In this document: piece after piece, positions 11,121 to 51,165 of the stretch
How positions within the stretch are numbered: the first letter of the stretch is position 1
Layout of the letters: every line of letters begins with the position of its first letter
Virus record (IMG/VR): IMGVR_UViG_2703718817_000003
DNA from: a virus
Lineage: Duplodnaviria; Heunggongvirae; Uroviricota; Caudoviricetes
Length of the DNA stretch: 64,000 nucleotides
Direction: 5' to 3' (one strand)
Made by a program: the position numbers and the translations under genes
Notes under the pieces: model-generated
What the model saw: only the letters and a program-made list of their open reading frames with translations
What the model was told of the DNA's origin: nothing
The model's database searches: none

Positions 11121-11152
11121 ATGTTAGAAAATTAAAATTGTTTTTCTAACAT
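11121..11152. promoter_or_regulatory. Inverted pair of operator-like motifs (ATGTTAGAAAATTAA ... TTTTCTAACAT)
   Basis: Near-perfect palindrome directly after the 9911-11119 stop. Confidence 0.5.
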
Positions 11153-12639: not shown

Positions 12640-12715
12640 GCCGGTTTAGCTCAGTTGGTAGAGCAGTCGCTTTGTAAGCGAATGGTCAGCGGTTCGATCC
12701 CGTTAACCGGCACCA
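12640..12715 (+). tRNA. tRNA-Thr (anticodon UGU)
   Basis: Acceptor GCCGGTT/AACCGGC, D-arm GCTC-AGTTGGTA-GAGC, anticodon loop TTTGTAA, T-loop TTCGATC, CCA encoded. Confidence 0.85.
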
Positions 12716-13419: not shown

Positions 13420-13495
13420 GGCCCTTTAGCTCAGTGGTTAGAGCGGGCGACTCATAATCGCACGGTCACCGGTTCAAGTCCGGTAGGGGCCACCA
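13420..13495 (+). tRNA. tRNA-Ile2-like (anticodon CAU, lysidine type) or tRNA-Met
   Basis: GGCCCTTTAGCTCAGTGGTTAGAGC...CTCATAA...GGTTCAAGTCCGG...AGGGGCCACCA; closely resembles enterobacterial ileX from memory. Confidence 0.75.
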
Positions 13496-14905: not shown

Positions 14906-14936
14906 TGTTAGTAAATTAATATTAATTTTCTAATAC
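14905..14936. promoter_or_regulatory. Inverted pair of operator-like motifs (GTGTTAGTAAATTAA ... TTAATTTTCTAATAC)
   Basis: Palindromic copy of the recurring motif between the 14522-14905 gene and the pacAB operon. Confidence 0.45.
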
Positions 14937-23735: not shown

Positions 23736-24116
23736 TCAAATATTGGAACCATATAGTTCACGTAGTTTTTCCGCTACTGAAGATACGGGGATTTCACCAG
23801 TTGCAGCCCCCACCGCAAGTTCCACCAGCACGGGAGAATCATATACCTGTATACCGTTACGGCGTAGAAATAGCAGCGCACTGTTTAGCGCGGTACGCTT
23901 ATTGGCATCATTGAATATATGCCCTCTCGCAGTAGCCACCAGGTAGGTGGCGGAGACTTCGAAAAGGCCGGTGATCTCTTCGTAGGCAACTCTGGCCTGA
24001 ACTCTCCCGATAATGGCCTCTGCCCTACCCGGATCTGACATTCCCGGCAGGCCGCCGTAGCGGTTTATATTCGCATCATGAAGCGCAATAAGTTCTTCCG
24101 GTGATATATGCCTCAT
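23736..24116 (-). CDS. doc: Doc toxin (Fic-fold kinase) of the phd-doc addiction module
   Basis: 126 aa; near-identical to P1 Doc as recalled ([38 protein letters not shown]). Confidence 0.9.
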
Positions 24117-24337
24117 TATCGGTTAACCAGTTCCTTGTTAGTGGAGTCCAGGGTGTCAAACAGGGATGCAAATTCAGCATCCAGCGCCGCTTTTTTGTAG
24201 GCTTCGAAAGTAGCCTTGCTGACAATTACTGCTGGCTCACGGCCTCTGCGGGTGATTTCAACCTCTTCACCGGCTTCAACATTGTTGAGCACTTCAGAAA
24301 GGTTGCCACGCGCGGTACGGAAGTTAATGGATTGCAT
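24116..24337 (-). CDS. phd: Phd antitoxin
   Basis: [49 protein letters not shown]... matches P1 Phd as recalled; ATG at 24337 preferred over track start 24343; stop overlaps doc start. Confidence 0.9.
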
Positions 24338-24409
24338 AAACACCTCGTGTACTCGTTATGTGTACACAATTATAAACTTCACAGGCATAAAGCACCAGCA
24401 CTTTGCAGC

Positions 24410-24799
24410 TTAAATAACCGGACAATCATCAAATTCCCCACTCCGGGCATCATTGATGATGTGAGTGATCACGCCAAACACAGCATTGCTACCAGTATAT
24501 CCATCATCATCCACTGGCAACGCCTCTTTCTTCCCGGTGCTTAAATCTTCCAGGTGCTGGCTCGGATGCTTCCGGTATCTCTTTATGCGATATTCCCCCT
24601 CTATAGCGCATACAAGCAGTGAACCATCAACCGGAGTAAGTGAGGAATCAACCACCAGCAAAGCACCTTGCAATATTCCCTCACGGTGATGGCTGTCTGC
24701 CGCCCGCATGAAGTAGGTCGCTGAAGGATGTCTGATTAGTTGCTGATCAAGAGAAATACGGCTCTCTGCATAATCCGCCGCAGGAGAAGGGAAGCCCAT
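24410..24799 (-). CDS. humD: UmuD-like SOS mutagenesis protein (HumD-like)
   Basis: 129 aa; LexA/UmuD-type peptidase fold (...VVDSS...GSLLVCAIEGEYRIKRY...); gene order hot-lxr-humD-phd-doc as in P1. Confidence 0.75.
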   Translation of the reverse strand: MGFPSPAADYAESRISLDQQLIRHPSATYFMRAADSHHREGILQGALLVVDSSLTPVDGSLLVCAIEGEYRIKRYRKHPSQHLEDLSTGKKEALPVDDDGYTGSNAVFGVITHIINDARSGEFDDCPVI

Positions 24800-24898
24800 A
24801 GCGTTTTACCTCAATGATACTGTTTATTCATACAGTATACATTGAAAAGGCATAGTTTGTGAAAGCGGGGTTTGTACGCGCGCCACGCTGGGGGCTAA

Positions 24899-25249
24899 TC
24901 ACATTGGTGGCGTGAACGTGCCATTCATATATTGCAAAATGCTTGACTCGATTTTTTCATTAAAATCAGAATGATGCTCCTCAAGGACAAAGCGCGCCTT
25001 ATTGTTGCGCACAATAACCTCCGCCAACGGCTTAACCAGAGATGTGGAGTTAGAGATTTTCTCGGCGCGCTCTACATCGCTTTTAAACGTTACGATGAAG
25101 TGCTGGTGGCCTGGTGACCGGCGACACAACATGCGTCGCACTTCCACGGTATCTTCACGGCCTTGAGTATGTACAGGAAAGCTATCGACCACCGCTGTAT
25201 TGGTGCGGATTGTCTGCATAGAACGCGTGTTGTCGTGATAGTTAAGCAT
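24899..25249 (-). CDS. hypothetical protein (position of P1 lxr)
   Basis: ORF 24899-25291; start placed at ATG 25249 (MLNYHDN...), which has a GGGGGAG Shine-Dalgarno and avoids overlap with hot. Confidence 0.45.
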   Translation of the reverse strand: MLNYHDNTRSMQTIRTNTAVVDSFPVHTQGREDTVEVRRMLCRRSPGHQHFIVTFKSDVERAEKISNSTSLVKPLAEVIVRNNKARFVLEEHHSDFNEKIESSILQYMNGTFTPPM

Positions 25250-25274
25250 GTTTAATGTCTCCCCCATCTTGCCG

Positions 25275-25526
25275 TTATTTTTTTGGTGCATCCTCGTTCT
25301 GATACACCGGATCGCTCCCTTTTGGCAGCAGGAGGCTTAACTGCCGGTAGTGCCGTAGCCGTTCCATGAAATAGGCGCGCAGGTTTTCCGGTTGCTCACG
25401 GGCCACCTGCTCTGCAATCACAGGTATATTCAGTCGTTCTTTGTAAGCAACGCCGCTGGCGGCAAGGTCTACGTTCACCTTGTCTCGCTCTTCCTGGCTT
25501 TTAGCTGCTATATTTCGATCTGACAC
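25275..25526 (-). CDS. hot: Hot: homolog of DNA polymerase III theta subunit (HolE)
   Basis: 83 aa; [43 protein letters not shown] parallels E. coli HolE as recalled. Confidence 0.8.
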
Positions 25527-25558
25527 AAGAAACCTCCCGGAGTTAGTGGATCAGGCAC

Positions 25559-25909
25559 ATGCACAATAACGTTCTCAATGTTAGCCGTTCAATTCAGACA
25601 ATCAGAGACTGCACCAGTGTGGTGGCATCAATCCCATTGCGAAACAGCATAGACGAACTGCAAATTCGTGTATTGAATCTGAATCAGGCTAATAAGCAAT
25701 TGCGCTTTATTTTGACGCTGAAAAGTGAAACAGAGGGGATAAAGCACAGCGTAAAAGTATTTTCTGAGGCCATTCTGCTTAATGGGAAGCTCCGGCATCT
25801 GGTAAGGCCAGAACGTCAATATCCTGACGTCCTGGCGCGTGAAAAAGACCTTCTTTCCGAAGTTCAGAATAGGGTGATCGATTTCGTTAAATGCCACCCA
25901 CTACAATGA
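25559..25909 (+). CDS. hypothetical protein (uncertain; only plus-strand ORF in a minus-strand block)
   Basis: 116 aa ORF, largely overlapped by the antisense ORF 25628-25897. Confidence 0.3.
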   Translation: MHNNVLNVSRSIQTIRDCTSVVASIPLRNSIDELQIRVLNLNQANKQLRFILTLKSETEGIKHSVKVFSEAILLNGKLRHLVRPERQYPDVLAREKDLLSEVQNRVIDFVKCHPLQ

Positions 25910-25965
25910 TTTGTAGTAACCAGGGGTACTGCGGGTAGCCAAAACTACAAGCTCACCAGTCATCA

Positions 25966-26781
25966 TTAATACCGGCATTCATAGCATGAGTATCTCCACT
26001 GTTCATGGTCAAAGCACCAGAATGCTTCCCTGGGCAGATTGTGTTTGTTCATTAGCGCCAATACTTGCGTAGGCGTATTCGCGGGAATTTCTGGTAGTAA
26101 AGCCTTCGCCATTTCATGAACCAACATGGCATCAATGACGCCTAGCGTATGGCCTGCCTTAATCTTTAATGCAGTTTCAAGATAGCTCCTTTCCAGAGTT
26201 GTGCTTACTCTTGGCTTCGGCACCTCTTGTGGATGAGTATCCAGACGGTTGCCAGATTCATAGGCTACCCGCAGCCAGTGCATGAATGTTTCAGTAGACA
26301 CACAACCGCAGTCCAGGTCGATTTTTTCGCGTTGTTGCCCCAGCCATTGCTCAAAATTTAACTTATTGGATGCTTCAAGAGCCTCTTCGTATTGTTTGCG
26401 CGAAATTATTTCCGTGTATTCCTCGCGATAAAGGTTACTTATCGGAAGCCTGACCTCAAGGCAAAAATTGCGCCCACACGGGCTTTTCGCTGGATCAGAG
26501 CCAAAAGCAAAGAAACCATATGATGGTTCACAGCAGTCCTCTCTAACCATGCGACAATCGAGCATATCATCAGGCCACCCTCCACGCTTTGGCAGCTCCT
26601 GCACCAACAAGTCAATCAGCTTTATACTCTCACCGTCTTTGCAGGTTGCTAACGCTATTTGGGCAAGCTCCAATACCTCATCTGCCGTGTATCCAGCGCC
26701 GTGTCCATACATTTCGATGCGTGCAATAATCTCTGATATGCGGAATTTAGTGATTTTAGTCATAGTTTTATTTCCTTGCAT
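25966..26781 (-). CDS. hypothetical protein, Cys-rich
   Basis: 271 aa; several CxxC-like pairs; no recognised domain. Confidence 0.5.
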   Translation of the reverse strand: MQGNKTMTKITKFRISEIIARIEMYGHGAGYTADEVLELAQIALATCKDGESIKLIDLLVQELPKRGGWPDDMLDCRMVREDCCEPSYGFFAFGSDPAKSPCGRNFCLEVRLPISNLYREEYTEIISRKQYEEALEASNKLNFEQWLGQQREKIDLDCGCVSTETFMHWLRVAYESGNRLDTHPQEVPKPRVSTTLERSYLETALKIKAGHTLGVIDAMLVHEMAKALLPEIPANTPTQVLALMNKHNLPREAFWCFDHEQWRYSCYECRY

Positions 26782-26969
26782 GGTTCGCCTTTACGGCATA
26801 CAGCTACACGGTCATTTCTTACATTAACCACTGTCACCGTTCCGTCATCACATTGAATAACGATGAAAGGGTGTTCATTCTCTTTTGTGCAATGTTGCTG
26901 TTCTCCAGCCATTGCAGCCGGAGGAGCAAATAGCGCCAGAACAAATGCCAACCTTAAAAAATGCTTCAT
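26760..26969 (-). CDS. small secreted Cys-containing protein
   Basis: 69 aa; signal peptide MKHFLRLAFVLALFAPPAAMA; overlaps downstream gene by 22 nt. Confidence 0.45.
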   Translation of the reverse strand: MKHFLRLAFVLALFAPPAAMAGEQQHCTKENEHPFIVIQCDDGTVTVVNVRNDRVAVCRKGEPCKEIKL

Positions 26970-27210
26970 TTGGCCTTATCCGTTATCAAAATTGGAATAT
27001 CCGTTATCACGAGCGTGATATCCGTTATGAAGGGGGTAATAAAATTACTTAGTAATACCCTCCTCCAGACTGAACGCCAGCGATAACCCAGGCTGCAAGA
27101 AGCGTAAATCCACTCCCAGCTTCACATTCAAGCGTTCCCCATTCAACACCACCAGCCAACAAAACAAATAACAAACAAAAAAGTAATCCAAAATTTCTTT
27201 CTGTTTTTCA

Positions 27211-27510
27211 TTATGGTTGACTCCAGTTATCTTCAATAACAATGCTCAATCTTTGTAGCCATTCTGCTAACTTCAGCATTGCTTCTCTTTCGCTTAAACC
27301 ACGAGGGAAATCATCAAGCGATATTGTTGGCTTGAAATTCCCGAAATTATCCATTTCAACGGTCAGATTTTGCTCCAGCACGGTATTCCTTACGCGGCTA
27401 TTGTGCCGGAGCAAATATACTGAGCGCGATTTATTGGTTTTGTGGTCTAGCTTATATTCGGTAAGTATCATATGGCTTCTGCCATGATTATTACCGCGCC
27501 ACATAATCAC
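27211..27510 (-). CDS. hypothetical protein
   Basis: 99 aa ORF. Confidence 0.4.
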   Translation of the reverse strand: MIMWRGNNHGRSHMILTEYKLDHKTNKSRSVYLLRHNSRVRNTVLEQNLTVEMDNFGNFKPTISLDDFPRGLSEREAMLKLAEWLQRLSIVIEDNWSQP

Positions 27511-27516
27511 TCCGTG

Positions 27517-27918
27517 TTAATAAGAAAAGTAGACCGTTGCGACTCTGTTATATTGATCGAACGAAATAGCATTTACTTCATAGCTGGTGGGTATCTTTTC
27601 GCCAAGAATGTAACCAGGCCATGATTTCCACGGAATTTCTGCTCGTTCGTCATGCCACACTGCGCAACCAAGAGAACCGACCGTCTCTCCATACCGTTTT
27701 CCGCAAGTAACAAAGCCTATATTTGGCTTATCTTGCGTGACTGCTACAGTGGTAGTATTTGCGGATGCATTGATTGCAGTGCGTTGCTCCTGCTCGCTTG
27801 CGGCTGAGGCGCTAATTGCTGCCGTTGTTGCGGCGGTTGCAACAATAACCGATGCATGTGATAAATGGCAGGCAGATAACATTGCCAGAAAAATAATAGT
27901 TCTCCGAAATTTAGCCAT
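27517..27918 (-). CDS. secreted protein (signal peptide)
   Basis: Start chosen at ATG 27918 (MAKFRRTIIFLAMLSACHLSHA...); Ala/Thr-rich linker then Cys-containing domain. Confidence 0.45.
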   Translation of the reverse strand: MAKFRRTIIFLAMLSACHLSHASVIVATAATTAAISASAASEQEQRTAINASANTTTVAVTQDKPNIGFVTCGKRYGETVGSLGCAVWHDERAEIPWKSWPGYILGEKIPTSYEVNAISFDQYNRVATVYFSY

Positions 27919-28094
27919 TGATTTACCCTTTATTGCGAACATATTTAGCTGTGTGTTGCCGATGCGCGGAGATTCTCTTATATCAATTCCACGCGCTCTG
28001 CTAACGAGCAATCCAAATAATCATCCGGATGCTTGTCGGTGTTATTAATGATGCGAATCCTCAAATCTTTTCACCTTTGAGGATAAGTTGCAGG

Positions 28095-28773
28095 TTAGCC
28101 ACGGTTAACTCCTTGCTGTGTGGCGTCGAGTAATAAATCCCACAACCGCTGAGAGCAATTTCCGCATGTACAGCGTTGACCCACAACGTTTATCGCGTTG
28201 CTGATTTCCGGCGTTACCTGTTTAGGAACCATAACCCAACCATCCGGAGTTACCGGAAGCGAGAACGGCAGCACATCTCTGTGAACAAGTTTTTGCTGTG
28301 ACAGGTTATCCAGAACTTTCTGTACTGCTGCATCACCGAATACACCAAGCGCATCTGCCATAACTCCTACAACCTGATAAGCCTCAGCGCATACCGTGGA
28401 TAAACCATCCGGAATTACCGGAGAGTTGCCTGCCAGTCTACGCAAAACAGTCTTAACCGCCTCAATACGGTCATCATCGCAACTTTCCAGCGTATCTATG
28501 CGATCGAGCATGATGATGGCGTTATCAATATCAGGATTGCCGGTCCACTCATTACCGCGATTGGATTCGGCAGCCTGGTTGCCGCGTACTGGTTGATTCT
28601 CGGCTTTACCCTGTCTGTCGTCGCTGCATGAATGCCCTTCCAGCCAGACCAGTGCTTGTCGCATGAAATACGCAATATGCTTGCCGTGGTAATCGTCTTC
28701 ATCGATGTGAAAAGCGATACTGCGGATATATTCAATTGCGTTTTCAATGGCCTCCGGCGTTATCGGTGCTGAC
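28095..28773 (-). pseudogene. 3' portion of a gene split by the IS2 insertion
   Basis: Reading frame stays open from 28664 up to the IS2 boundary at 28773 and is in phase with the 5' portion at 30105-30477 once one CTGAC copy is removed. Confidence 0.6.
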
Positions 28774-28784
28774 TGGATTTGCCC

Positions 28785-29690
28785 CTATATTTCCAGACAC
28801 CTGTTATCACTTAACCCATTACTGGCCTGCTGCCGCAGATATTCCCGTGGCGAGCGATAACCCAGTGCACTATGCGGATGCCATTCGTTATAATGCTCGA
28901 ACGCCTCTGCAAGGTTCTTTGCTGCCGTTAACCCGTCTGGTTTAGGCATGATACTGATGTAGTCACGCTTTATCGTTTTCACGAAGCTCTCTGCTATGCC
29001 GTTACTCTCCGGACTCCGCACCGCCGTGTTCTTCGGTTCAAGCCCCAACATCCGGGCAAACTGCCGTGTTTCATTAGCCCGGTAGCATGAACCATTATCC
29101 GTCAGCCACTCTACTGGAGACGCCGGAAGCTCGTTGCCGAAGCGGCGTTCCACCGCTCCCAGCATTACGTCCTGTACTGTTTCACTGTCGAAGCCGCCCG
29201 TAGTGACTGCCCAGTGCAGTGCCTCACGGTCACAGCAGTCCAGCGCGAACGTGACTCGCAGTTTTTCTCCGTTATCACAGCGGAACTCGAACCCGTCAGA
29301 GCACCATCGTTGATTGCTTTCTTTCACGGCCACTTTGCCAGTATGTGCCCGTTTCGATGGCGGTACAGCGGTTTTTCGCTCAAGCAACAGCGCATTCTGG
29401 CGCATGATCCGGTAAACACGTTTGGCATTGATCGCAGGCATACCATCAAGTTCGGCCTGTCTGCGAAGCAGCGCCCATACCCGACGATAACCATACGTGG
29501 GCAGCTCTCCGATAACATGGTGTATACGGAGAAGCACATCCGTATCATCTGAGTGACGGCTGCGGCGACCATCTTTCCAGTCATCGGTTCGTCTGAGAAT
29601 TACGTGCAACTGCGCACGCGACACCCGGAGACAACGGCTGACTAAGCTTACTCCCCATCCCCGGGCAATAAGGGCGCGTGCGCTATCCAC
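28785..29690 (-). CDS. insD: IS2 transposase OrfB (InsD), DDE integrase core
   Basis: 301 aa; IS3-family catalytic region (...[25 protein letters not shown]...[14 protein letters not shown]...). Confidence 0.85.
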
Positions 29691-30013
29691 TTTTTTGCAC
29701 GCCCGTATTCAACGGCTTCTTTAAGGAGTTCATTTTCCATCGTTTTTTTGCCGAGCAGGCGCTGGAGTTCTTTAATCTGCTTCATGGCAACAGCAAGTTC
29801 AGAGGCAGGAACGACCTGCTCTCCTGCGGCCACAGCAGTAAGACTTCCCTCCTGGTATTGCTTGCGCCAGAGAAATAACTGGCTGGCTGCCACACCGTGT
29901 TGCCGGGCAACAAGGGAGACCGTCATTCCCGGTTCAAAACTCTGCTGAACAATAGCGATCTTTTCCTGTGTAGTACGCCGTCTGCGTTTCTCCGGTCCTA
30001 AGACATCAATCAT
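29648..30013 (-). CDS. insC: IS2 transposase OrfA (InsC), HTH
   Basis: [53 protein letters not shown]...; start at ATG 30013 with GGAGAG Shine-Dalgarno. Confidence 0.85.
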
Positions 30014-30104
30014 CTGCTCTCCAATGACTAGTCTAAAAACTAGTATTAAGACTATCACTTATTTAAGTGATATTGGTTGTCTGGAGATTCAGGGGGCCAG
30101 TCTA

Positions 30105-30477
30105 CTGACATATTTTTATTTTGGAGTGCCAAGACGCGGCTGGCATCCTCTACGCCTTTAACTGCATCTGCGCAGTAGTTATAGCGATTGCATTCCACTA
30201 ACTTCTGCTTGAGATTTTCAATTGCTTGTGCGACATCAGCCTGCAATTCCGGAACTGGCGGAGTGGCATATAACGGCACCCACTTTGGTGCTTTATCCCC
30301 GACCGAACGCTGATACCAGTCACCCGGTTTGTATTCATAAAAATCACCAACTGGCTCTGCTTCCAGAGATGCCAGCGCAATTTCATAAGCACGGCGCTCA
30401 ATATTGTCTCGCACGTCCAGACTGCCTATGCGCTCTTTGATTTCTTTAATCAGTTCTTTGTCGGTTAAAGTGGTCAT
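30105..30477 (-). pseudogene. 5' portion of the gene split by IS2
   Basis: 124 native codons (MTTLTDKELIKEIKERIGSL...) then read-through into the IS2 end; see finding. Confidence 0.6.
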
Positions 30478-30487
30478 AAATTATGCC

Positions 30488-31021
30488 TCAGTTGTATCCG
30501 ATTGGATTAACCGCAACAATAACGCCATCCGCGAACAAATCTTTAATGAGGTGTTCGCTCGGCTCGCCTTTTTCGTACTCTTCAATAAGGTAAGTGTCTC
30601 CATCCTCATTGATATAAACTGGAAGAATGGAACCGTTGATGAAGTAGGTTCCGTTGTTATCGAGGATTTTTGCCTCGGCGATTTGTTTTTTGGTAAAACG
30701 ATCTTCTTTTTTCAAAGTTGCCATATCTGTTTCCTTATGTGGGTTAATTTTATTGTGTAGCTTCCTGAATGGGGTCCACACTATATCGATATACAGTTCA
30801 ACTAACGGTTCAAATACTTTCCCCATTAGAACAGTCACTAATATTGAGGCTATTGGTATCAGCAACACGAAAAACAGAATGATAAACAGCAATTCTAGTG
30901 CTCTACTCTTTCGCGGATATTCTTTTCTGAATAAAGTGGGCATTTCCTCCCCATTAAATGCCTCAATGATTTCTCCAGTGTTTTGCGCTGCACCTGAATT
31001 ATCTTTAAATCCTTCTTTCAT
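30488..31021 (-). CDS. membrane protein, hypothetical
   Basis: 177 aa with one strong transmembrane segment (LLFIILFFVLLIPIASILVTVLMG). Confidence 0.45.
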   Translation of the reverse strand: MKEGFKDNSGAAQNTGEIIEAFNGEEMPTLFRKEYPRKSRALELLFIILFFVLLIPIASILVTVLMGKVFEPLVELYIDIVWTPFRKLHNKINPHKETDMATLKKEDRFTKKQIAEAKILDNNGTYFINGSILPVYINEDGDTYLIEEYEKGEPSEHLIKDLFADGVIVAVNPIGYN

Positions 31022-31716
31022 CGTTTGCTATCTTCCTCACACCCAAGATATGAAAGAGATGTAATTGCTTTTGCACGGAAACCACCAACCTTGCTAAGTG
31101 CGCTTTTAAGTGCGTCAAGGTCAGATTGTGATTTGATCATGAAAGTTAACCGCGCAATTCCAGACATAGAGTCAGAACCATTCACTGCGTTGTAGTGATA
31201 TATGTATCGGGTGACTGATTGAGTCACGCCCTCCTGCTGGTGGTTTATATTGGCGTCCTGTCTTGTGTTGGCCTGCTCCAACTCTTCGATACGTTCAGCC
31301 ATCGCAGCACACTCTTCAAAGTTGCTTAATGCTTTTCGCTCCGATTCAGCGCATTGTTTTTCCAGTTCTGCTATGCGCTTACCTCCATCCGCGATTACTC
31401 CCTCGTAATGCTCGCGCTGCTCGTTGAGTTTTGATTTTGCCGACTCCAGTTGTTTTGTTAGTTCCACAATACGGCAAACATCGTTGATACGCGTTTCCTC
31501 TAATGCGTTGATCTCATCCAGTAGTGCCAAAGCAACCTTGGGATTAAAGGCAGCAATAAATTCAGCGTTGTTTTTCAGAACGTGTTGCGCAATGGCCTGA
31601 CTACTTAGTCGGACCTCATAACCACGTGCGCCACGGTGTGGTTTATATGAGTCCCAGTCTCCCCACGTTGCTTTCACTGCCGCCTCACGCAGTGCCTGGT
31701 AATTAATTTCGCTCAC
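31018..31716 (-). CDS. Ead/Ea22-like coiled-coil protein
   Basis: GTG start; N-terminus [15 protein letters not shown] shared with the 31703 and 37245 paralogs; coiled-coil centre. Confidence 0.55.
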   Translation of the reverse strand: MSEINYQALREAAVKATWGDWDSYKPHRGARGYEVRLSSQAIAQHVLKNNAEFIAAFNPKVALALLDEINALEETRINDVCRIVELTKQLESAKSKLNEQREHYEGVIADGGKRIAELEKQCAESERKALSNFEECAAMAERIEELEQANTRQDANINHQQEGVTQSVTRYIYHYNAVNGSDSMSGIARLTFMIKSQSDLDALKSALSKVGGFRAKAITSLSYLGCEEDSKR

Positions 31717-32161
31717 TGGTTGCCTCCTTATTAATCAGTTTATACAGGTGCACCACAGTCACAGAGAGTGCATCCATCGCTCGTTTATCCAGGCGCGGGG
31801 CCAGAGCAACCAGTTCATTTATTGCAATCTGAATACGCTGCTCCGCCGCCAGCGTCGCGCGATTGCTCTCCAGTTCTGCAATTCGGCACATGGCATCAAT
31901 ATTTGCGTCTTCCAGGCGCTTAATTTCGCCCAGTAGCGCCAGCGCAACTTTTGGTGGGATAGCCGCGATATAACGGGCATTGGCACCAGCGTTTCTCAGC
32001 CCATCAATACCAGGCCAGTCAATAAAGTATCCGCAATGCCTACCCTCAGACGTGCGCGCAGGATAAATGCCGTTATGACCCGGCAAAATATATGCTACCC
32101 ATTCATCTTGCGTTGCCTGTTCCGCCGCCTCGCGCAGTTCTTGATAGTTAATTTTGATCAC
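31703..32161 (-). CDS. Ead/Ea22-like coiled-coil protein
   Basis: GTG start; N-terminus IKINYQELREAAEQA; coiled coil CRIAELESNRATLAAE. Confidence 0.55.
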   Translation of the reverse strand: MIKINYQELREAAEQATQDEWVAYILPGHNGIYPARTSEGRHCGYFIDWPGIDGLRNAGANARYIAAIPPKVALALLGEIKRLEDANIDAMCRIAELESNRATLAAEQRIQIAINELVALAPRLDKRAMDALSVTVVHLYKLINKEATSERN

Positions 32162-32414
32162 TGGTTGCCTCCGCTTCCCACGTTTTCAGACTTTCACCAC
32201 AGAACGGGCAAAATGAAATTCGAATCGGCGATTTAGAAAACTCGCCTGACCGCAGCATGATCAGGTCTTGTGAATGAATTAATGCATGGTTATAGATTTT
32301 GTATTTCAGCAGACCTTTTCGCGTCGTGTATTCAGCGTCATGTTCCAGGGATTGCGTCAACGCCGCGCACGGTTCTATCTTGTTGCCATTAATTTGGCAT
32401 TTTGACTCACTCAC
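32148..32414 (-). CDS. small zinc-ribbon-like protein
   Basis: Start placed at GTG 32414 after GGAGG (SESKCQINGNK...); C-terminal CPFCGESL plus upstream Cys residues. Confidence 0.4.
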   Translation of the reverse strand: MSESKCQINGNKIEPCAALTQSLEHDAEYTTRKGLLKYKIYNHALIHSQDLIMLRSGEFSKSPIRISFCPFCGESLKTWEAEATSDQN

Positions 32415-32650
32415 TGGTTGCCTCCTTTGCGGAGTTGCGCTGCGATGCACGAAAAAAAAGACTCCCGAGTATGACAGTTAAGAGCTGGTGCGAACGCCGC
32501 GTTAAGAACGGCGGCATCACAGCCGTCATCAATATAGAGCGCAATTTTTTTCTCCAGGCGCGCTTTGGCTTCCTGCAACTGCATACCCCGGCACGCACGC
32601 GGGATATAATCAGCAATTTGAGCGATAGCTTTTTCGTTCTGTTTAAACAT
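32411..32650 (-). CDS. hypothetical protein ending in QLRKGGNQ
   Basis: 79 aa; C-terminus [10 protein letters not shown] shared with the 36213 and 37727 proteins; stop overlaps downstream GTG (GTGA). Confidence 0.45.
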   Translation of the reverse strand: MFKQNEKAIAQIADYIPRACRGMQLQEAKARLEKKIALYIDDGCDAAVLNAAFAPALNCHTRESFFSCIAAQLRKGGNQ

Positions 32651-32895: not shown

Positions 32896-33624
32896 TTATT
32901 CCTGAATGCGCTTAAACTCGATTACCCACACCCAGGGATTAGCGTTCCAGCTTTCTTCACCATAGATGGATTCCCACAGGCGCTGGAACGCAACCTTGGC
33001 CATTGCGAAATCCCCCTTGGGAGTAAGGAATGTTCCCGGGTGATCAGGGAGCAAACTTCCAGCAGGCGGAACGCCCTCATCCCTTGCATCGCATTCGCTG
33101 ATATCGTTCAACCGCTCAACGCGCACGTTGGTAATTTCCAACAGGATGCGTGATGCCCATCGCGGCATGTGAATTGATGGACGCCACCCACCATCAAACT
33201 TTTCATTCACAGTGTGAGGTTTCCAGTCGGCATCATCGGGTATCGACCATAAACCGTAATCACCAGGCTTTTGCTCACAACTGGCCCGATAAATCCTTGC
33301 TGCGTTCTTCTCATCGCCACGACAAAGGTTGTCGTTCCAGTCCACACTGCAACCATCTTCATTGCCTAATATCGCCCATGTTTCACGAACCCAAATTCGA
33401 TCGCCGACGATACCAAAGGGGCAATTGAAAACACTGCTTACACCATCAGCCCCGTACCACTGAAAACCTGCACCAATTTCCCTAACCATCACTGGTGCTT
33501 CTGGACCAACTTCCGCAGGCTGATTTTTCATTATCCGCCGCGTCTGCGTTTTCCTTCCTTCGAGGATGGCTCGGACCATCTCATCGTTAAAAATCATCCC
33601 GCGTTCTTTCATTTTTTGATCCAC
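32896..33624 (-). CDS. ASCH-like domain protein (hypothetical)
   Basis: 242 aa; N-terminal FNDEMVRAILEGRKTQTRR resembles the ASCH/PUA-like signature (ILxGxKTxTxR). Confidence 0.45.
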   Translation of the reverse strand: MDQKMKERGMIFNDEMVRAILEGRKTQTRRIMKNQPAEVGPEAPVMVREIGAGFQWYGADGVSSVFNCPFGIVGDRIWVRETWAILGNEDGCSVDWNDNLCRGDEKNAARIYRASCEQKPGDYGLWSIPDDADWKPHTVNEKFDGGWRPSIHMPRWASRILLEITNVRVERLNDISECDARDEGVPPAGSLLPDHPGTFLTPKGDFAMAKVAFQRLWESIYGEESWNANPWVWVIEFKRIQE

Positions 33625-34665: not shown

Positions 34666-34697
34666 ATGTTAGAAAATTAAAATCAATATTCTAACAC
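34666..34697. promoter_or_regulatory. Inverted pair of operator-like motifs (ATGTTAGAAAATTAA ... ATATTCTAACAC)
   Basis: In the gap between the ppp gene stop and the 33629-34624 gene start. Confidence 0.5.
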
Positions 34698-35944: not shown

Positions 35945-36216
35945 TTTGTTTTCTCCTGTCTGAACATCACTATCATCAGGTCGCCTTTTGTCGCTATCCT
36001 GGCTGTTGTACCTGGTTCAATGCGGCTAAGCTCAAATGCGTCATAGAACGCTTCTAATGCCTTCTGGCGTAGTTCCTGTTTGCGCCGTTTTTTCCACTGT
36101 TTCAGGAAAATGGAACCCAGCCATCGCCATGTACGGGACATGATGTAAAGCCAACCGAGAAGTGCCAGACCGGTATTTAGGAGCGTATCGATCGTTATTG
36201 TCGTGTCGATATTCAC
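35941..36216 (-). CDS. small membrane protein
   Basis: 91 aa; GTG start in the conserved GGAGGCAGCCAGTGA junction; hydrophobic N-terminal half. Confidence 0.45.
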   Translation of the reverse strand: MNIDTTITIDTLLNTGLALLGWLYIMSRTWRWLGSIFLKQWKKRRKQELRQKALEAFYDAFELSRIEPGTTARIATKGDLMIVMFRQEKTK

Positions 36217-36923
36217 TGGCTGCCTCCTTTGCGAAGCTGTTCAGCAATACTTACGCATATCTCTGCGCCTCTAATCAGCCCCGGAACGTTCTTGTTTGGC
36301 CCAACTTCACCATCGACAAAATCAATCATCGCGTTACGAGCCATATCCACGCCCTGCGCACGTACTTCAGCCAGGAAAGCATCGGTGGCTGGGGTATCAA
36401 CACGGATACTGTCGCGCAAGATGAAAAATGCATTGAGCATTCCAGTCTCTGGCACTTCATCCTGATGCTTCTCATACGCATCAAGAGCCTTCATCATCTC
36501 AGCTCCGAATGGTTGAGGGTGCACAGACTTCAGCTCCGCATTCTCCGCCGCCAGCACCGCGCGTTCGCTCTCCAGTTCTGTAATGCGCCGTCTTGCAGCA
36601 TCCAGTTCAATCGACAATTTTCCCAACTGCTCTTTATGCTTCTTGTATTCCTGATATGCGTGCCAAGACTGACCTTTGCGCACACTATCCGTGATATCAG
36701 TAATCTGTTCTGGTGTTAGCGTGGTCAGTGGCTGTGCTGGGAAAATCAGCACTTTCCCGGCATCCCAATCAAAACCCACCTGAATTGACTGAACCTCAAC
36801 TGATGGTGTTGAACCGATGCGACCAGGCGAATGAACAACGATCGTTACATCCATATCGCGACGATGGCTGTGGTTGTTGGACAAAATACGATTCACCAAC
36901 TCAGAAAATTTGGAAAATTTCAT
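36213..36923 (-). CDS. Ea22-like coiled-coil protein ending in QLRKGGSQ
   Basis: Start placed at ATG 36923 ([10 protein letters not shown]...), overlapping the upstream stop (ATGA); coiled coil [30 protein letters not shown]. Confidence 0.5.
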
Positions 36924-37276: not shown

Positions 37277-37730
37277 TGCTGTTTATGATGCTGTCAGTGC
37301 ATGGGGTAGAAAGCTGGGCATCTCCAGCAATTTTCATGACCTCAACATCTGCATATCGAATACCGAGGTGTATCAGACCGGCTATGCCTGACTTAAGCCG
37401 AGCATTTTCCATAAATAGAACCTTTGCCCGCTGTTTTTCTGCTTCAAGCTCAACGCGCAGCTTCCCTACCGTTAGCGCAATATCCTCGTTCTCCTGGTCG
37501 CGGCGTTTGATGTATTGCTGGTTTCTTTCCCGTTCATCCAGTAGTGCCAGCACGGTTTCTGGTCCGGCCAGAAATTTGAAGGCGTTGAGCGCATCAATAT
37601 CCACACCGTAATCTTTAAGTTCCTGTTCACTTAACAAATCATCATCAGCTGGCAACATTAACAGGCGTTCCATTGCTGGAATTGCACGTTCCGCCGCCTC
37701 ACGCAGTGCCTGGTAATTAATTTCGCTCAC
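37245..37730 (-). CDS. Ead/Ea22-like protein
   Basis: GTG start overlapping upstream stop; first ~50 bp of gene plus junction identical to the 31018-31716 paralog. Confidence 0.55.
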
Positions 37731-38401
37731 TGGTTGCCTCCTTTGCGAAGCTGGGCAGCGAACCTATCAGCTGCATCCGCGCAAGCAGAAGCAACGGAAT
37801 CAAAAAATGGATCATCTCCTGTATCGCGCATCGTCAAAGCGAATGCCTCCACCCCTTGTGCCTGTATTTCTACAAGGGATGCCTTAGATGTAGTGCTTTT
37901 CGCCTCGCCTAATTCGTTATGAGCGATGTTCGCTATACATGCGATGTCTATATCTGGATGATTAATTGGGCAATGGCTAAGAATTGCCTCAAGTGCTGCT
38001 TTTTTGCTTTGGCATTCCGCCACCAGCGCCCCGCAATTGCTTTCCAGCTCTGCAATACACTTTTTAGCGGCCTCCAGCTCAACACGCAGATTCTCAAGCG
38101 TTAGAGCCTTCTCCACGTTCTCGTCCAGCAGTTCAATCACATCAGGATCGCTACCATCAACTACTGATATGCGCGAATTTTTGTAATGCTCGTCAGCATA
38201 AGTTCGTCCAGTTTTGAAGCATCCGTCATCCTCCATGCCGGAACAGGCATAAACAACATGTGATCCAGATATGCGCTGCATTGACATTTCCTCGCCACAA
38301 ACAGGGCATTTAGGCGCTGGTTTCGGTGAATAACGTTCACGTAACGGATAGTAAAGCTCGATCTCCGCCAGTTGCTCTGGCGTTAAACCTTCAGACTTCA
38401 T
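37727..38401 (-). CDS. zinc-ribbon / coiled-coil protein ending in QLRKGGNQ
   Basis: 224 aa; N-terminal CPVCGEE...C...C ribbon; coiled coil; shared C-terminal domain. Confidence 0.5.
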   Translation of the reverse strand: MKSEGLTPEQLAEIELYYPLRERYSPKPAPKCPVCGEEMSMQRISGSHVVYACSGMEDDGCFKTGRTYADEHYKNSRISVVDGSDPDVIELLDENVEKALTLENLRVELEAAKKCIAELESNCGALVAECQSKKAALEAILSHCPINHPDIDIACIANIAHNELGEAKSTTSKASLVEIQAQGVEAFALTMRDTGDDPFFDSVASACADAADRFAAQLRKGGNQ

Positions 38402-39511: not shown

Positions 39512-39543
39512 GTGTTAGAAAATCAATTTTGATTTTCTAACAC
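39512..39543. promoter_or_regulatory. Near-perfect operator palindrome GTGTTAGAAAATCAA-TT-TTGATTTTCTAACAC in a divergent promoter region
   Basis: Best-formed copy of the recurring motif, between the minus-strand operon head and the Ref-like gene. Confidence 0.55.
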
Positions 39544-51133: not shown

Positions 51134-51165
51134 GTGTTAGATAATTGAGTTTTATTTTCTAACAC
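51134..51165. promoter_or_regulatory. Inverted pair of operator-like motifs (GTGTTAGATAATTGA ... TTATTTTCTAACAC)
   Basis: Directly upstream of the rdgC-like start. Confidence 0.5.

Follow-up and report, generated by a model that had tools for sequence, protein, structure and literature searches.

The stretch of DNA analysed here (hereafter the window) comprises 64,000 nucleotides of a Caudoviricetes virus, IMG/VR record IMGVR_UViG_2703718817_000003, which resembles P1-like phage-plasmids (RCS47, D6 and SJ46, among others), and the present analysis concerns a block of small minus-strand genes lying next to hot. On balance, the block appears to be a shuffled, non-essential accessory cassette that fills a slot of a D6/P1g2-type element, would be expressed in the lytic phase and encodes both exported and cytoplasmic products. 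We propose that the cassette genes travel between P1-like elements, prophages of the Mu-like and lambdoid types, and IncI2 plasmids, and would have been shuffled into the pmgT-hot region, where their distal position in a minus-strand operon would lead to transcription after induction or infection. The 69 amino acid (aa) and 133 aa proteins would then pass through the Sec pathway into the periplasm, probably acquire disulfides there, and as a pair most likely act, during lytic growth, on a target in the envelope or periplasm, for instance to stop a second phage from entering or to mask a receptor. The cytoplasmic proteins of 97 aa and 265 aa, in turn, may be early host-interaction factors of the lambdoid exo-xis/nin kind. 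The features on which this reading depends are as follows.

27517-27918, minus strand: gene of a 133 aa protein, very likely exported (PHROG 8805; RefSeq gene in NZ_CP104667 and sequence)
27211-27504, minus strand: gene of a 97 aa protein, predicted to be cytoplasmic (PHROG 1258; ATG at 27504)
27049-27211, minus strand: decayed open reading frame (ORF) of a two-helix membrane protein (alignment to NZ_CP104667; RefSeq WP_157924453.1; hydropathy)
26977-27039, minus strand: three 21-bp direct repeats with the core ATAACGGATA (repeat scan; frame reading; viral contig scan)
26760-26969, minus strand: gene of a 69 aa precursor (PHROG 20764; homolog alignment)
25966-26763, minus strand: gene of a 265 aa Cys-rich mosaic protein (piecewise PHROG matches; PmgU-module alignment)
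28774-30104, minus strand: IS2, 1331 bp (5-bp target duplication CTGAC at 28769-28773 and 30105-30109)
34667-34696, no strand assigned: inverted TGTTAGAAAATTAA pair, candidate operator (motif recurrence; overlap with a promoter-like TTGATT-17-TATTTT)

A sequence-only reading of the window had placed four ORFs on the minus strand of this block, and all four were present, with near-identical RefSeq genes in the Escherichia coli plasmid NZ_CP104667, the closest relative, whose block is 97.7% identical and which lacks IS2. Several boundaries had to be moved. The largest protein, given as 271 aa from a start at 26781, more probably begins at ATG 26763 and has 265 residues; its gene does overlap the 69 aa gene, but by the shared ATGA of an ATG and a TGA rather than by 22 bp. 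The protein given as 99 aa has 97 residues, and position 28011, taken as the end of the block, is merely that of the longest TTG-initiated ORF around the 133 aa gene. The decayed membrane ORF, a fifth reading frame, and the three 21-bp repeats before the 69 aa gene had been overlooked. The gene junctions within the block are overlapping or tight. The ORFs are not products of chance, since homologs at 45-85% identity retain their lengths, signal peptides and invariant cysteines. No paralogs of the four proteins were found within the window by tblastn, and no Rfam match was obtained in 24000-31000. As regards Pfam, NCBIfam and PADLOC, the statement that the block lacks recognisable motifs is correct, and together with PDB sequence and fold searches these databases returned nothing informative for the block proteins and no match at all for the 133 aa and 69 aa proteins; the statement does not hold for PHROGs, where each of the four belongs to a family, nor for the 265 aa protein, which carries a PmgU module. 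Database entries name the homologs "hypothetical protein" throughout, save for an occasional "prophage exported protein", "Gp43" or "morphogenetic protein", and the literature search returned no mention of the RefSeq accessions or PHROG identifiers of the block proteins.

The terminase subunit PacB of the window shares ~56% identity with the P1 type and at least 80% with that of ~117 plasmids of its own lineage, and phage D6 is the definer of a divergent group termed P1g2 (PMC10879196). The window fits the D6/P1g2 lineage of P1-like phage-plasmids. Matching plasmids number ~365 and are non-mobilizable, at ~90 kb each. The block is flanked by a pmgT-like gene (32930-33614, 97% to P1) and by hot (25275-25526), whose identity, as proposed earlier, was borne out by a Pfam match (PF06440, E=2.6e-32). 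In P1-like phage-plasmids the stretch from pmgT to humD constitutes variable region 8, one of eight hypervariable regions (PMC9603915), and the same pmgT-hot/humD slot is known as a recombination or RD hot-spot (PMC9603915, PMC6906374). The block lies in this region, between the pmgT side and hot-lxr-humD, and the gene content of the slot varies among the compared loci (L001, L002, L003, L016 and L019) and P1. The P1 slot has the same position and orientation relative to hot and shares the PmgU module with the 265 aa protein; counterparts of the 133, 97 and 69 aa genes are missing from P1 itself. P1 pmgT, pmgU and pmgV are non-essential by CRISPR interference (CRISPRi) and knock-out, as are upfN, upfO and hot (PMC10695390).

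The distribution of the block further suggested accessory status. The complete block is rare, being found in 5 plasmids and in 8 of 5426 complete E. coli genomes, and at least 80% of it is held by only 5 of the ~365 matching plasmids. Among PLSDB records, PacB-like proteins occur in 777, the 97 aa family in 369, the 133 aa family in 63, and the 69 aa family in ~50 P1-like plasmids and ~122 IncI2 conjugative plasmids. This patchiness, within a known recombination hot-spot (PMC9603915, PMC6906374), agrees with the earlier description of the block as cargo. It had been pointed out that conservation in all P1-like phages with a known structural role would speak against such a description; in the comparison across P1-like genomes this objection was not borne out, as the block is patchy and no structural role is on record for the P1 counterparts of its genes.

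Signal peptides had been assigned to the 69 aa and 133 aa proteins, and the computed features support this assignment and place none in the 97 aa and 265 aa proteins. The calls were made heuristically, from n-region charge, a hydrophobic core of ~10-15 residues and small residues at -3/-1, all kept in homologs, and on this basis both proteins show features of Sec export with signal peptidase I cleavage. The N-terminus of the 69 aa protein reads MKHFLR followed by LAFVLALFAPPAAMA, with two positive charges, a hydrophobic core and a putative cleavage site between AMA and GE; no lipobox was found in it. Across ten homologs the signal peptide drifts, whereas the mature 48 aa part (GEQQHC...) is almost fixed and its four Cys are invariant. 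The product is therefore very likely a Sec-exported, periplasmic mini-protein of 48 aa once mature, and this pattern of drift and constancy is in keeping with a disulfide-bonded state; probably both exported proteins are disulfide-bonded in the periplasm.

The same mini-protein links the P1-like elements to IncI2 plasmids. The IncI2 homolog, of 71-83 aa, has a signal peptide as well (e.g., WP_015387362.1 of pHNY2, NZ_KF601686; locus L018, 3794-4045); its mature part retains all four Cys and is 83-85% identical to that of the 69 aa protein, and the DNA identity of 78% is limited to the gene itself. In pHNY2 the gene stands three genes upstream of VirB6/VirB5-like type IV secretion genes, unlike the setting of the 69 aa gene. 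A role as a core secretion component was considered and rejected, because the homolog occurs in only ~122 of ~580 plasmids with the same VirB6 type (about a fifth), and it is therefore accessory there too.

The 133 aa protein begins with MAKFRR and TIIFLAML..SHA, thus offering an n-region KFRR, a hydrophobic core and a likely cleavage site between SHA and SV, and its export via the Sec pathway is very likely. The signal peptide is followed by an Ala/Thr/Ser-rich linker of variable length and a C-terminal domain of ~70 aa, in which the family keeps an invariant GF.TCGK motif and a second invariant Cys. A lipobox, LSAC, spans residues 14-17 of the window allele and is confined to its own sublineage; homologs near and far carry Ser or Thr in place of its Cys, with LSAS or unrelated residues. 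The family as such therefore does not appear to be lipidated, and its classification as a lipoprotein family was rejected; the window allele alone may be a lipoprotein. The family is narrow, with 15 clusters at 50% identity among 1.84 billion representatives. Homologs at 53% identity lie in the early region of Mu-like prophages, between the genes for transposition (transposase B) and GemA/Mor and co-directional with the early operon; for the most distant homologs the contigs were short and the gene contexts uninformative.

The 97 aa protein has no export features. Its predicted fold consists of a C-terminal helix and four antiparallel strands. The family is constant in length, with 60-70% identity across Klebsiella, Citrobacter, Salmonella and Erwinia prophages, and its homologs in lambdoid prophages occupy the nin or PL early region, often beside Ead_Ea22 genes. 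Regions with 97 aa homologs also carry Rem and Acb2/Tad1-like genes. Downstream of this gene lies the decayed membrane ORF, which in NZ_CP104667 is intact and encodes 58 aa with two hydrophobic helices by hydropathy. The window copy has lost 14 bp, and this deletion throws the ORF out of frame beyond codon 22, so that a frame of 22 aa is left. The 58 aa product is predicted to be membrane-inserted when intact, and it is inactivated here by the deletion. With two likely exported products and a formerly membrane-inserted third, the premise of envelope targeting holds for part of the block, namely the 69 aa and 133 aa proteins and the former membrane ORF, and fails for the 265 aa and 97 aa proteins, which appear cytoplasmic.

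The 265 aa protein is Cys-rich as first described (11/265 = 4.2%), has no export signal and is, by its modules, a predicted cytoplasmic mosaic of PmgU/Ead type and the local member of the PmgU family. Its PHROG matches cover at least six families and are all short or piecewise, some being common to the neighbouring Ead/DUF551 genes, and no Pfam Ead_Ea22 (PF13935) or DUF551 (PF04448) domain was found in it above the gathering threshold. The PmgU module, LERxxLExALxIKxGHTLGxIDAxLVHxMAxALLP, occupies residues ~190-223, and 25 of its columns are invariant across the 265 aa protein, P1 PmgU, SJ46 gp87, 813R1 and two further P1-like loci; identity to P1 PmgU is 59% over 46 aa (tblastn). This conserved C-terminal module and the position upstream of hot/upf place the protein in the PmgU family. 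Compared with P1 PmgU, it is longer by three N-terminal modules and by a tail rich in Cys. The 11 Cys are spread across three modules, with only the DCGC pair conserved in longer homologs, and the C-terminal CxxH...CxxC tail (WCFDH...CYEC) occurs in this allele only, among the loci aligned.

The presence of the invariant PmgU C-terminal module, and the name "morphogenetic protein" borne by some homologs in databases, could be taken to suggest a morphogenetic role, following the "Pmg" (putative morphogenetic) label of P1 PmgU that was copied onto homologs. That label is positional and not experimental, the genes that carry it in P1 are the non-essential pmgT, pmgU and pmgV (PMC10695390), the N-terminal modules vary freely among PmgU-type proteins at the slot, and the remaining genes of the block are found in only a fraction of P1-like plasmids, all of which makes a morphogenetic role very improbable.

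Traces of recombination were observed within the block. Just upstream of the 69 aa gene stand three exact ATAACGGATA cores at 21-bp spacing, which are 100% conserved in NZ_CP104667 though the flanking coding DNA diverges. A contig scan found the unit in 29 viral contigs, and outside P1-like contigs it is mostly in-frame coding sequence, specifying (x)ITD(S/N)xxx heptads of Ead/DUF551-type mosaic proteins. In the window, the corresponding frame ends in ITDITLVITDIPILITDKAK and a stop codon, has no start, and overlaps with its stop the ATG of the 69 aa gene. An operator function of the repeats for the 69 aa gene, as a repressor or activator site, was considered because of the 21-bp spacing and rejected, given the coding ITD-heptad unit elsewhere and the startless frame here. 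For the same reasons the repeats are best read as a non-coding remnant of an ITD-heptad linker, which likely marks a recombination joint. In a Salmonella P1-like contig (L016), the membrane ORF and the repeats are missing and the 97 aa and 69 aa genes are joined directly.

Short repeats were also seen further upstream. The start regions of several minus-strand genes of the Ead-like operon have common 40-84-nt repeats, ending in CACTGGTTGCCTCC on the plus strand (31644-31727, 32089-32172 and 37658-37741; 32407-32445, 36209-36247 and 37723-37761), which may be a further sign of module shuffling via short conserved joints.

IS2, whose place beside the block had been reported correctly, splits a DUF551-type gene into the fragments 30105-30477 and 28095-28773. 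The transposase genes of IS2 run in the direction of the minus-strand operon, and the element sits between the operon head and the block, so that it may be polar on the block or may drive the transcription of the block. With IS2 in the gene immediately upstream, a frameshifting 14-bp deletion in the membrane ORF and a non-coding ITD-linker remnant, the block could be viewed as a decaying and functionally inert remnant. This we doubt strongly, in that the four ORFs are intact, with the 133, 97 and 69 aa proteins 100% and the 265 aa protein 99.6% identical to those of IS2-free relatives, and the families conserve their cysteines and domain cores.

The P1 C1 operator, ATTGCTCTAATAAATTT, is absent from the whole 64-kb window, even with 3 mismatches allowed. 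Instead, the motif TGTTAGAAAATTAA occurs 17 times at up to 2 mismatches, mostly in intergenic positions and often as inverted pairs 2 bp apart, the sites including 9877, 11122-11151, 14906-14935, 19364, 20759, 34667-34696, 39513-39542, 40160, 51135-51164 and 59226. Probably they serve this D6/P1g2-type element, whose operator motif differs from that of P1, as immunity-repressor operators. The pair at 34667-34696 lies just upstream of the first gene in the minus-strand run that ends with the block, and the equivalent operon of P1 is C1-controlled through the operator OpmgT/Op88. From motif recurrence, position and the analogy with P1, we infer a repressor-controlled early operon of ~9 kb on the minus strand, with the block at its tail. 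A candidate repressor operator at the operon head means that the block would most likely be transcribed after induction or infection rather than in the resting prophage. Together with the early lytic location of homologs, it argues against resting-prophage expression, and lytic-phase expression appears more likely than prophage expression.

The earlier suggestion of exclusion or defence cargo can be read as a lysogenic-conversion (moron) block, whose exported proteins would be made by the resting prophage and would exclude superinfecting phages or defend the host. Two exported products and one former membrane protein would suit such a role, as would the location in a cargo hot-spot, the IS2 transposase transcription directed at the block with its possible read-through, and the 176-bp gap upstream of the 133 aa gene. 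Nevertheless, a consensus scan of the coding strand within the block revealed no sigma-70-like promoter and only weak intragenic terminator-like hairpins, the candidate repressor operator stands solely at the operon head, and the homologs lie within early lytic operons of Mu-like and lambdoid prophages. As to defence cargo, no block protein matched PADLOC-DB at E values up to 0.1, which leaves that part of the suggestion unsupported. Searches of PHROG, Pfam, NCBIfam and PDB revealed no homology to known superinfection-exclusion families (Sim, Imm, Sp, Cor, Llp, SieA/B and gp15-like); no block protein matched an annotated exclusion family in PHROGs or Pfam, and the PHROG families matched are all of unknown function. 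Expression as a moron block from the resting prophage is hence unlikely.

Small envelope-targeted proteins that act in exclusion include P1 Sim, T4 Sp and Imm, T5 Llp and phi80/N15 Cor, some of them expressed in the lytic phase. A functional analogy of the 69 aa and 133 aa proteins to these is plausible, but the PHROG and Pfam searches revealed no sequence similarity to them, and in contrast to Llp and Cor, the lipobox is not conserved in the 133 aa family. Exclusion or receptor masking during lytic growth would be a reasonable conjecture for the exported proteins. For their molecular targets we can offer only conjecture; those of the mini-protein could include the lysozyme of a phage tail, a step of DNA entry, or the type IV secretion or pilus functions of a rival. 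That the 48 aa four-Cys mini-protein is a periplasmic inhibitor in mobile-element conflicts, with a further, independent effector of like kind in the 133 aa protein of P1-like and Mu-like phages, is a speculative extension to which we attach little probability.

A close parallel to the block is provided by the accessory genes of the lambdoid exo-xis/nin regions (Ea22, Ead and DUF550/DUF551), which, like the block, are small, early and module-shuffled. These regions are the home of the 97 aa family, the ITD-heptad linker DNA of the block is coding there, and PHROG 60, 21459 and 3323 matches are common to the block and to the neighbouring Ead/DUF551 genes. The block differs from them in that no block protein has a significant Pfam Ead_Ea22 or DUF551 domain and in that it is borne by a plasmid prophage instead of an integrated lambdoid phage. 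With the semi-essential early region of Mu-like phages, which holds the 53% identical homologs of the 133 aa protein, this one gene alone is in common.

These parallels also raise the possibility that the cytoplasmic proteins of 97 aa and 265 aa, if not the cassette in its entirety, serve in early host takeover or anti-defence, as would other genes of the lambdoid exo-xis/nin and Mu semi-essential early regions, with the exported proteins as unrelated passengers. The constant length and 60-70% identity of the 97 aa family, its place by Ead_Ea22 genes in regions with Rem and Acb2/Tad1-like genes, and the modules that the 265 aa protein shares with Ead, DUF551 and PmgU proteins speak for it, as does an influence of Ea22 on the lysis-lysogeny decision (PMC10834534). 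On the other hand, no homology to characterised anti-defence proteins was found, and the 97 aa model, though confident, has no informative fold neighbour. This alternative, which we regard as possible but not probable, is moreover compatible with the accessory-cassette explanation rather than exclusive of it.

Several observations weigh against the explanation as a lytic-phase accessory cassette. Homology assigns a function to none of the five products, and the AlphaFold model of the 133 aa protein is unusable (predicted local distance difference test, pLDDT, 46). After the 265 aa gene, where the presumed unit ends, neither a stable hairpin nor an intrinsic terminator was found. The operator was assigned from motif recurrence and position only, and transcription of the block in lysogens could start from an internal promoter or from one supplied by IS2. 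Lastly, the cassette may be partly silent in this particular element, with IS2 upstream possibly polar and one gene broken.

Other features of the window were noted in passing. Two ORFs flank hot in opposite orientations, at 24899-25291 (minus strand) and 25559-25909 (plus strand); they are paralogs, 36% identical and both of PHROG 2594, and an 18-nt inverted repeat (25208-25225 / 25586-25603) lies inside them. Two tRNA-like sequences, at 12645-12715 and 13425-13495, form a direct-repeat family, and one of them overlaps a match to the trnI region of P1.

The novelty of these findings is low, since all block families are already catalogued as hypothetical proteins and the hot-spot is already described. 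The block illustrates the known hot-spot exchange of small accessory genes among P1-like phage-plasmids, phages and conjugative plasmids, and shows both a visible recombination joint, in the likely ITD-linker remnant, and ongoing decay, in IS2 and the deletion. The most interesting loose end is the link between P1-like and IncI2 plasmids through the 48 aa mini-protein. If the mini-proteins block phage entry or conjugation, very small periplasmic effectors would join the tools of mobile-element competition, and the reading of the 48 aa protein as an inhibitor, with the 133 aa protein as a second effector, would, if true, establish secreted exclusion factors of very small size as a new class. 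A block of phage entry or conjugation would moreover supply a function for gene families that hundreds of clinical plasmids from E. coli, Salmonella and Klebsiella carry.

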